DNA from: an uncultured Bacilli bacterium
GTDB lineage: Bacteria > Bacillota_I > Bacilli_A > RF39 > UBA660
DNA: 64,000 nucleotides
Reading direction: 5' to 3'
Assembly (NCBI GenBank): GCA_910583945.1
Contig: CAJTYF010000003.1
Span: 3,466 to 67,465, forward strand
In this document: positions 60,001 to 63,000 of the stretch, piece by piece
How the letters are laid out: the number at the start of each line of letters is the position of its first letter
Numbering within the stretch: position 1 is the first letter of the stretch
Program-made: the position numbers

Positions 60001-63000
60001 CCTGTGCATTCTAAAACTAAATCGACCTCTAAGTCTTTCCAAGGTAAATTTTCGGGATCTTTTTCTTTATAGACTTTAATTCTTTTGCGATCGTTAATGA
60101 TGAGTTCATCTTGATCATTTTTAATCATTTCTTCATGAAAAGAACGGTGATTGGTATCGTATTTCAAAAGATAAGCAAGTTCTTCAGGATCAGTTAAATC
60201 ATTGATGGCAACAATATCAAAATCGGTACTAACAATCATTTCTCTAAAAGCCATTCTTCCTATTCTTCCAAACCCATTTATGGCTACTTTTATCATAATT
60301 TTTAATCTCCTTTTCCAATAAATTCTCTCAAAATGGAATCTTTACTTATATATTCGCTTGGTATCGGGTAAAATCCTTGTAACGATTTAATTAATCTTCT
60401 TGCTTCTTCATAAAATGGAGAATCTAAACCTACGGAATAAAGTAAAGGTTCAACAAACACTTTCATAACTCCTATTTCAAAACTATAAGCGGTATTAATA
60501 ACTATATCAGCTTGATGAATGTACGGGAAAATGTATTTTTCTTCTCCTTCACGGACACTTTGCCAAAGATTAATGGTTTCTGACACATTGGTTCCGCGAG
60601 TGCGATTGTCTCTAACAATTCTTCTAAGTAATCTTAAGTCAACGGTTGAAACATAATTGTGACGATCGATTCCTAAAGGAATAAAAGGACTTAAATAAAT
60701 CTTGTATTTATATTTGTTTTCTACTTCATTCGTTAGGGCATCGTTTAAACAATGTAAGCCTTCTATTAGTAGAATACTATTTGATGTCATTTTAACGGGA
60801 TTTGATCCTCTATTTTTTTTCTTAATGACAAAATCGTAAACGGGCAAATACACTTCTTTTCCATTTAATAAATCCATTAAATCTTGATTAAACATTTTGG
60901 TATCGATGGCTTCTAAAGATTCAAAATCGTACTCTCCATTTTCTTTTATAGGTGTTTGTTCACGGTCTTTATAGTAATCATCTACAGAAATAGGAATGGT
61001 GTCATACCCTAAGGTTTTTAAGTAACTGGATAGCCTCTTATTTGTAGTGGTTTTTCCAGTTGAAGATGGTCCAGATATTAACACGATTTTTACGTCTCGT
61101 TTTTCATGGATAATGTTGGCTACTTTTGAAATATGGCTATTAAAAATGAGTTCATTTGCTTCTATTAACCCTTTGATTTTACTTGAACTCACTTGTTCAT
61201 TTAAATCAGGTAGATATGGAACTTTCATGGTTTCTAACCAAGCTTTCCCTTCTTCAAAAGTATCAATGATATTATTGTAGTGTACGTATTCAGGAACGGA
61301 ACCATCTGTTCTACTACTTGGATAAACTAACACAATTTTATTTTTTCCTAAATAAACTAACTCATATTTATTTATTTTTTTTGTGCTGTAAGGTAATTCT
61401 GTATAATAATAATTATAATAATCTTTTAATTTATAAAAACTGATGATCTCACTATTTGTATTATGAACATTTTGCGCTTTTTCATGCTGATTATGGCTTT
61501 CAAAATAAGTGATAGCATCTTTTCTTACTACATTATATTTGGTTATTTTTTCATCATTATTAATAATGGTGTTCATGTTTTCTTTAATCACGTTTAAGTC
61601 ATCTTTAATAATGCTTTTATTTCCTTTTATTTCAGCCATAATTCCTTTCGGCACGCTATGCAAAAAGTTTACTTCGACATTCGGAAAACTTAATTTTACA
61701 GCGACTTCAAAAATAAATTTTAAAGCTGCTTGATACATACGATAACCATAAGGATCTGTTACGTCTACAAATGAAATACGACAATCTCTAGCTAATTTCG
61801 TATGCATAGCTACTATTTCATTATTTATTTTGGCACCAATGATATCATGCGTCATTTTATCCTGATAATATTCTGCTACTTGATAAACGGTGGTTCCGCT
61901 TTTAAATTCTTTTACAGAACCATCTTCAAACGTTACTTTAATATCCGTCATAGTTATCCCTCTTATTCTAGTTCATTTTATCATATTGTTTTTTATTTTG
62001 GTAGTTCTTTTAAAATAAATAATAGGGATTTGTTATACTATTTGGCAAAATTTGACGAAAAAATTTTGTTAGATTTTTAATCTATTAAAAATCTTGGTCG
62101 CAACCCTAAACTTTGATTAGCTGGATAAATAAGAGCGTCTCGACCAATACTTGCAACTGAAAACTCATGAACACTTCCAAATCTAGTATTTTCATAACTA
62201 TTGATAAACTCCGGTTTAAGTTGAAATAGGGCATATTGATTATTATCCATTCCTGTATCATGACCACTTGATGACCAAACATTTCCTCCATAAACATTTA
62301 TTTCGCTCATTAAATCTACTTTTCTTGAATACTAGCCTACCCCATTTGAAGCTCCAACTGTTATACCACCACTTGAATTTATAGCAGTTGCGTCTATCCC
62401 CATAGATAGCATATTTTGGCATTCTATAATATGACCGCCAAACGCTTTACCAATTACTCCATCACTCGCTGCTAAACTTGGTAGGGTACTTGTTGCCATT
62501 CGGCTTCCTGCATAGCCGCCTTCGGTTGTAGCTGTTGCATTCATAGGTGCATTCATTAATGGTGTAGCAGGTATGATTGTAACATGATGTTTGGTAAGCT
62601 CTGTTGCTCCACTATGCAAATAATTATCAATATCTGCTATAAGCCATGTTATGTCATTTGCTATGATATAATCACCGACATAAAGGTCTTCAAAACTTCC
62701 ATTACTGATTCTAATATATAAACTTCCATCTGTATAATAAGGAGTTATATCTTTTCCTCGATAAGTATTTCTATGTAACGCTTTTCCAGCTTCTATATAT
62801 TTGTTGTATTCTTCTTCACTTAATCCACTTGTAAACTCGACGTTGCATTTTGATTCACTGCTGACATTGTTTAACACTAAGTTCCAATTATTATAATCCC
62901 ATTCCCCAAACGTTCCATTCGTACAGTGCACATTTGTTTTGTATAAGCCTCTTTCTGGAATACTTTCACTTTTTTTATCATCAATCACTACAGATAGCAT

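Follow-up and report, generated by a model that had tools for sequence, protein, structure and literature searches.

A 221-bp identity between two dispersed paralogues is the probable footprint of recent gene conversion in a poly-G-containing gene family of a gut Bacilli bacterium

How do two copies of a gene that differ at many positions on either side come to contain a long block of identical sequence, and does the process responsible diversify the proteins that they encode? The question is raised by 64,000 nt of DNA from an uncultured Bacilli bacterium (the window), a segment of core chromosome of about 30% GC which carries asnB, tex, hpf, an agr-like locus, spoIID, uvrA, clpC, ribosomal protein genes, spo0A and glycolysis genes. 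The organism belongs to a low-GC, spore-forming lineage of the mouse and rabbit gut. Scattered among these core housekeeping genes are five copies of an unannotated gene family, numbered here by position.

Copy 1: 10682 to 11892, minus strand; pseudogene with a G4 tract, thrown out of frame by the loss of 5 bp near 11835
Copy 2: 34969 to 36153, minus strand; intact gene of 394 aa with a G10 tract (36121-36130) in frame with the upstream ATG
Copy 3: 54912 to 56088, minus strand; 384-aa ORF that starts at an internal ATG (56064-56066)
Copy 4: 62077 to 63228, minus strand; pseudogene with a premature TAG and a 21-bp deletion
Copy 5: 63355 to 64000, minus strand; truncated at the window boundary, with the complete 387-aa gene in contig L029 and as protein P0007

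An intact orthologue of copy 1 exists elsewhere (P0030). In copy 3 there is an upstream ATG with a Shine-Dalgarno sequence (56086-56088), which the decay of the G tract to G4 has put out of frame; the exact protein of the 384-aa ORF is found as P0006. Copy 4 retains its ATG (63226-63228), an in-frame G10 tract (63195-63204) and the ancestral stop codon (62077-62079). Its premature TAG (62332-62334) falls where the orthologue in another strain reads TGG, and the deletion near 62177 has removed the conserved motif GYWLKNV, in which YWL is near-invariant.

Copies 1-4, the four with 5' ends inside the window, all retain conserved upstream sequence that includes a TATAAT hexamer, together with a AGGAAGGA ribosome-binding site and a start codon. 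A conserved TTGTTT-17-TATAAT element is visible by eye and was missed by a consensus promoter scan, which is uninformative in such AT-rich DNA (it called 10 and 14 sites where 9.3 and 11.4 would be expected). The G10 tracts of copies 2 and 4, a short way behind the start codon, are the only runs of six or more G or C residues in the 64 kb and, as long homopolymers at the 5' end of a coding sequence, improbable at about 30% GC. This is a feature typical of phase-variable genes, and G10 tracts occupy the same place in strain X (introduced below) and in a sister species. An independent assembly of the same strain (L001) has G11 rather than G10 at copy 2, which shifts the frame and leads the gene caller to start at Met31; this is the only internal difference in 11.25 kb (two further bases differ at the contig end), a single case for which homopolymer sequencing error is possible. 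Judged from their sequence and position, the G10 tracts of copies 2 and 4 could switch translation on and off by slippage.

The proteins begin with a short lysine-rich N-terminus and a hydrophobic helix (residues 19-45); then come a small beta domain, in which the cysteines at positions 92 and 118 are invariant, and a globular domain that extends to the C-terminus. The N-terminal half is constant, with high protein conservation across 58 homologues, and the C-terminal half is hypervariable. Direct scans of copies 2-4 against Pfam and NCBIfam returned sub-threshold noise only and no significant match, a profile search of PDB sequences found no relative of the family, and we found no description of it in the literature. 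A homologue search returned 394 proteins, nearly all of them unnamed and from mouse and rabbit gut 'Bacilli bacterium' MAGs. Among the matches listed in genome contigs there are at least 12 loci, none of them above 58% protein identity or from the same species; a scan of metagenome contigs yielded three marginal loci. Seven of 58 family members gave weak matches to the C-type-lectin-like domain DUF6273 at E <= 0.01 (best 2.6e-4), with no family match above the curated Pfam threshold for that domain, and the predicted head domain has the same fold. Each protein is predicted to have one transmembrane helix and a DUF6273-like, C-type-lectin-like head, an architecture which suggests a membrane-anchored, ligand-binding surface protein. 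Among the best 120 matches, no other protein is more than 70% identical to the variable halves of copies 2, 4 or 5, and the variable half of copy 3 is best matched by two partial proteins (77-80%).

Copies 3 and 4 have the same orientation and lie 7.1 kb apart. When they are aligned, positions 55522-55742 of copy 3 and 62654-62874 of copy 4, at a constant offset of 7132 nt, agree over 221 bp with 0 mismatches, although this 100% may be slightly overstated because short-read bubble-popping could mask a few real differences in a near-identical repeat. The preliminary description had reported an identical block of about 240 bp at 55497-55740 and 62641-62880. The block exists but is shorter, and those two intervals are of unequal length (244 and 240 nt) and out of register. 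The opening string quoted there as common to both copies, 'gcgattaaccatgtcacatcatttgc', belongs to copy 3 alone, copy 4 having 'gctataagccatgttatgtcatttgc' at that point; six of the first 26 quoted bases differ. The exact run is bounded at lower positions by mismatches at 55500, 55506, 55509, 55511, 55518, 55520 and 55521, and at higher positions by one at 55743. Two further statements about the block hold. The flanks are indeed more divergent, with 37 mismatches in 321 nt of 5' coding flank and 142 in 462 nt of 3' flank, so that computational alignment leaves the block far more similar than its surroundings, and copy 2 does differ within the block, as set out below.

Conversion tract in copy 4, the probable recipient: 62654 to 62874, minus strand; exact 221-bp run, 100% identical to copy 3
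Counterpart in copy 3, the probable donor: 55522 to 55742, minus strand; the same exact run of 221 bp

In copy 3 the block encodes residues 109-182 of the 384-aa ORF, where, by secondary structure, the small beta domain ends and the head begins with its first helices. Its 3' end, at about residue 182, is where similarity between the paralogues collapses into the hypervariable C-terminal half. Identity to the block falls from 94.7% for copy 1 to 90.9% for Y3, 86.6% for copy 5, 86.0% for X4, 83.6% for X5 and 81.0% for copy 2 (X and Y denoting other strains, described below). The run comprises 48 consecutive concordant polymorphic sites. In permutations of the GENECONV type, which used polymorphic alignment columns only, a run of this length gave p <= 1e-4 with the whole gene included and p <= 5e-5 when the permutation was restricted to the conserved N-terminal half as a guard against rate heterogeneity.

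The most important evidence comes from other strains, which were located via proteins in the same clusters as the PGK, udk-like and Spo0A proteins encoded in the flanks. Most contigs reached in this way break inside family genes, and a true orthologue of the variable half of copy 4 was present on just one of them, L015 (strain X). This contig is 94.8% identical to the window over 7.4 kb and syntenic with it (copy 5', copy 4', a udk-like gene, gap, pgk, tpi, spo0A), and it carries the intact orthologue of copy 4, X4, which had also been found among the homologue search matches as P0010. A third strain (Y; contig L019) supplies Y3, an orthologue at the copy 3 locus. A further group of strains (L036-L044) was considered for polarising the event and rejected, as it represents a more distant lineage with a constant region only about 74% identical.

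Throughout the variable half, copy 4 and X4 agree at 89-100% of positions; in part of the block their identity drops to 78%, and there X4 instead resembles copy 2 and X5. Comparison of copy 4, copy 3 and X4 gives 258 informative sites, at which copy 3 and X4 differ and copy 4 agrees with one of them. Between 62881 and 62659 a run of 34 such sites is uniformly of the copy 3 type, whereas 209 of the 224 outside this patch are of the X4 type (maximum chi-square 167, permutation p <= 0.001). Copy 4 is therefore a locus-specific backbone of the X4 type into which a patch of the copy 3 type has been set. The event was recent, since the 0 differences in 221 bp limit subsequent divergence to about 1.4% or less (95% limit), well under the roughly 5% that separates the two strains.

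The same comparison bears on the direction of transfer, which was probably from copy 3 as donor to copy 4 as recipient. This polarity is favoured because the block is closer to Y3 (90.9%) and copy 1 (94.7%) than to X4 (86.0%), differences that are modest, and the block of X4, itself 93% identical to X5, has possibly been converted in its turn.

The patch is not an isolated one. Along the N-terminal 560 bp of copy 4 the nearest relative switches repeatedly, as follows (positions read along the gene, minus strand).

Promoter and start: nearest X4 and copy 5
63186-63127: nearest copy 1 and copy 3 (100%)
63036-62977: nearest X5 (100%), the strain's own copy 5 being only 85% identical
62886-62827: nearest copy 5, copy 1 and copy 3 (98%)
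The 221-bp block: nearest copy 3 (100%)
After the block to the end of the gene: nearest X4

Copies 1 and 3 have a long exact tract of their own, with 57 concordant polymorphic sites (p <= 1e-4), which spans the upstream region, ribosome-binding site, start codon, decayed G4 tract and first coding bases.

Second long exact tract: 55994 to 56194, minus strand; 201-bp exact run in copy 3, identical to 11798-11998 of copy 1

In the sister species (about 86% DNA identity), the copy beside udk and the copy beside spo0A have in common an exact run of 181 bp. This too lies in the constant half, the variable halves of the two copies being 47-69% identical. Tracts within the variable half are short only: one between copies 2 and 5 (35315-35346 and 63686-63717) has p = 2e-4, and another between copies 3 and 5 has p = 1e-3. 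The evidence for shuffling inside the variable half is thus weaker than for the constant half. Overall, the constant half is homogenised patch by patch, while the hypervariable half is largely locus-specific within a strain and strongly different between strains.

The segment of copy 4 at 63036-62977, which matches strain X perfectly and the strain's own copy 5 at only 85%, could suggest that copy 4 obtained the block, or its whole mosaic allele, from the DNA of another strain. Identity between the window and strain Y rises from 94.1% to 99.2% across the copy 3 locus, and between-strain recombination therefore does occur at these loci. For the block itself, however, a donor with 100% identity sits 7.1 kb away in the same genome, making import the less parsimonious account, and no block from another sampled strain comes closer than 90.9%. 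We consider import an unlikely source of the block.

It is equally necessary to ask whether the identity was manufactured by a short-read assembler that collapsed or mis-threaded similar paralogues. The 221 bp exceed the length of typical short reads, contigs of this lineage routinely break inside family genes, and in one case (L033) exactly 127 bp, the k-mer size of that assembly, are held in common at a contig end. A false patch inside a gene would nevertheless require two path switches at short shared k-mers. The protein of copy 4 is identical on three contigs, and two further assemblies (L002 and L029) are 100% identical to the window across both copies, such that the mosaic of copies 3 and 4 is fixed in every assembly of the strain examined; all sequences compared are metagenome assemblies, and the concordant ones have similar run accession numbers and are perhaps not from independent populations. 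Comparable tracts are also present in assemblies of other species. Even if a few differences have been masked, which is the worst case, the block would greatly exceed its flanks in similarity. An artefact is on these grounds very unlikely.

Purifying selection could in principle hold an element identical without any recombination, if the element were sufficiently constrained, and the block does lie in the N-terminal half, where protein conservation is high across the 58 homologues. Synonymous sites argue strongly against this. By the Nei-Gojobori method there are 0 synonymous differences at 42 synonymous sites in the block, while pS reaches 0.417 on the 5' side and 0.70 on the 3' side. At the rate of the adjoining 5' segment the block should contain about 17.5 such differences, and the Poisson probability of none is about 2.5e-8; constraint at the level of the protein is ruled out on this basis. 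Nor is the nucleotide sequence constrained, because the other copies and orthologues (copies 1, 2 and 5 among them) differ by 5-19% within the block. Moreover, copy 4 is a pseudogene, and a search for Rfam families and tRNAs found no match anywhere in the window. The identity of the block is neither a matter of chance nor of protein-level selection, and selection of any other kind is a highly improbable cause.

Two other candidates were rejected. Insertion of a mobile element is incompatible with a block that is in-frame, homologous coding sequence in every copy, and DGR mutagenesis finds no counterpart in a family whose members differ by indels and all base types rather than by adenine-specific changes; the repeats of the window include no template repeat, and a Pfam scan of ORFs that cover part of it revealed no reverse transcriptase.

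The locus therefore displays together the signs by which conversion between paralogues is recognised in analyses of the GENECONV and RDP type: an identity run longer than permutation allows, synonymous sites homogenised in the tract but not in its flanks, and relationships in tract and flank that conflict when the orthologue is taken as reference. We conclude that two dispersed paralogues very probably underwent a recent, non-reciprocal homologous recombination (gene conversion), of which the 221-bp identity is the footprint. Recent segmental recombination, the reading first proposed for this block, is the one best supported by the synonymous sites, by the lack of constraint on the block and by the mosaic revealed by X4.

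Mechanistically, such a patch could arise if the two direct repeats, at a distance of 7.1 kb from each other, underwent RecA-type homologous recombination without crossover. Since the essential glycolysis genes gap, pgk and tpi, together with spo0A, lie between the repeats and would be lost in a crossover, only patch-type outcomes would be expected to survive. Divergence between the copies would limit the extension of heteroduplex, which may be why the patch stops near residue 182. The preliminary description had further regarded segmental recombination as the mechanism expected of a family that generates sequence diversity. The recombination itself is borne out, but this event homogenises and creates no diversity in an expressed protein, because the transferred sequence belongs to the constant N-terminal half and was probably received by a pseudogene, copy 4. 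As every assembly of the strain examined shows one and the same mosaic, there is no evidence of high-frequency programmed switching. What the tract does document is concerted evolution and the capacity of the family to recombine. Gene conversion of this kind is well known, and its footprint here is a textbook one and not surprising in itself; what is new is the gene family in which it is found.

Several well-studied systems provide points of comparison. The Opa proteins of Neisseria are beta-barrel outer-membrane proteins of a Gram-negative bacterium, switched by a CTCTT pentamer repeat. Like opa genes, the members of the present family are complete genes at several dispersed sites that carry expression signals of their own and, here by prediction, a simple repeat in the 5' coding region acting as a translational on/off switch; both families also have conserved and hypervariable segments, as well as mosaic alleles that stem from recombination between loci. 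The two differ in that the repeat here is a poly-G tract, the protein a predicted single-pass membrane protein with a lectin-like head, and the host a gut commensal of Gram-positive type, and there is no relationship between them in sequence or fold.

In the bab adhesins of Helicobacter pylori it is the middle region that varies, and conversion swaps the ligand-binding part and alters adherence. The resemblance lies in conversion among a few dispersed paralogues with conserved ends in common, in repeat-mediated phase variation at the 5' end, here a predicted one, and in chimeric alleles that differ between strains. Conversion between babA and babB, and between homA and homB, has been reviewed (PMC5483490, PMC2795765). 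Unlike in the bab genes, the tract described here is in the constant part of a pseudogene and is without evident phenotypic effect.

Antigenic variation from silent cassettes is exemplified by Neisseria pilE/pilS, Borrelia vlsE and Mycoplasma genitalium MgPa. The short, non-reciprocal transfers between related sequences are alike, and the defective copies (copy 1, copy 4 and Y3) could serve as sequence reservoirs. However, the present family has no single expression site. Copies 1-4 keep the upstream region, ribosome-binding site and start codon, and among all copies with an available 5' end none conforms to the pilE/pilS pattern of one expression site with promoterless partial cassettes. A further difference is that there is no sign of high-frequency switching.

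As in the DGR variable proteins and other proteins of the C-type-lectin fold (TvpA, Mtd, tentaclins; PMC10743442), variability is greatest near the C-terminal end of the fold. The DGR-target signature of template repeat, reverse transcriptase and adenine-specific differences is absent from the window as scanned, and diversity in the present family would instead come from the multiplicity of paralogues together with recombination and phase variation.

The family displays hallmarks of contingency surface proteins, namely putative poly-G switches, constant and hypervariable halves, frequent pseudogenes and patchwork recombination, to which can be added the presence of different alleles at the same locus in strains that are about 95% identical. 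To our knowledge, such systems, although well studied in pathogens, have hardly been studied in commensal Firmicutes. On a practical level, the repeats formed by the family break metagenome assemblies at predictable places.

The family is a candidate for studying the variation of commensal surfaces under pressure from IgA or phage, because of the fold of its predicted head: DUF6273 is a C-type-lectin-like domain hypermutated by DGRs in phage receptor-binding proteins (PMC10743442), and the C-type-lectin-like/DUF6273 fold also occurs in the N-terminal domain of the gut IgA protease of Thomasclavelia ramosa (PMC12402451). Going beyond the single event, it is conceivable, though we hold it only tentatively and think it somewhat doubtful, that these genes make up an undescribed variation system of gut commensals, multi-copy and phase-variable through poly-G tracts, with membrane-anchored C-type-lectin/DUF6273-like heads. 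Frequent short conversions would in that case keep the constant regions alike and so provide the homology needed to reshuffle heads, on/off tracts and sequence stored in pseudogenes between loci and between strains. If this is true, recombination among paralogues does for this fold what DGRs do in phages and some bacteria, and may have the purpose of varying adhesion or of escaping IgA or phage.

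Two members of the paralogue family carry a run of ten guanines shortly after the start codon, and these are the only G/C homopolymers of at least six nucleotides in the 64-kb window:

36121-36130, C10 on the plus strand: G10 tract of copy 2, a little 3' of the start codon
63195-63204, C10 on the plus strand: G10 tract of copy 4, a little 3' of the start codon

In L001 (L001:88-98), assembled independently from the same strain, the copy 2 tract is G11 and the frame is shifted; this G11/G10 change, a single case, is the sole internal difference between that contig and the window over 11.25 kb. 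Both strain X and a sister species retain G10 tracts at the corresponding position. To judge from the sequence, these tracts are the classic signature of a putative phase-variable contingency locus.

A second long exact tract joins two loci 44 kb apart:

11798-11998 = 55994-56194: 201-bp exact tract shared by copies 1 and 3

It takes in the upstream region, the ribosome-binding site and the start codon, together with a G4 tract that has decayed. Transfer between the copy 1 and copy 3 loci seems to have included the 'locked', short-tract 5' end itself. An agr-like quorum-sensing locus (12482-15268) adjoins copy 1:

12482-13078, plus strand: AgrB
13279-14553: GHKL histidine kinase
14534-15268: LytTR response regulator

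AgrB is among the very few plus-strand genes in the window, nearly all others lying on the minus strand, and the GC skew is steadily negative.

The family is rich in pseudogenes, which still undergo recombination. Copy 1 is frameshifted by a 5-bp deletion at about 11835, and copy 4 contains a premature TAG at 62332-62334 (TGG in X4, its strain X orthologue) and has lost the near-invariant GYWLKNV motif through a 21-bp deletion at about 62177. The strain Y gene at the copy 3 locus (L019:5945-7100) is likewise disrupted. Strain Y is 94.1% identical to the window upstream of and through this locus and 99.2% identical downstream, and has an insert of ~1.1 kb 3' of the pseudogene, with an unannotated ORF of 243 aa (L019:7086-8180 compared with window 54865-55024). 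On the basis of the identity jump and the insert, we conclude that the copy 3 locus marks a between-strain recombination breakpoint. Copy number also differs in other lineages, with two family copies at the copy 3 locus (L041:14334-17027), and one copy, not two, at the udk-adjacent locus in L030 and L041.

The ends of this lineage's metagenome contigs (L001, L002, L015 and L019-L044) systematically fall within or next to these paralogues, and L033 has exactly 127 bp in common with a second copy, the k-mer size of its assembler. The family is a recurrent source of metagenome assembly breaks, and any mosaic seen on one contig alone therefore warrants caution.

Within the hypervariable half, two shorter mosaic segments involve copy 5:

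35315-35346 / 63686-63717: copies 2 and 5, 23 concordant polymorphic sites (p = 2e-4)
55336-55354 / 63767-63785: copies 3 and 5, 15 concordant polymorphic sites (p = 1e-3)

They may reflect exchanges, either more ancient or over shorter stretches, in the putative ligand-binding part of the protein.
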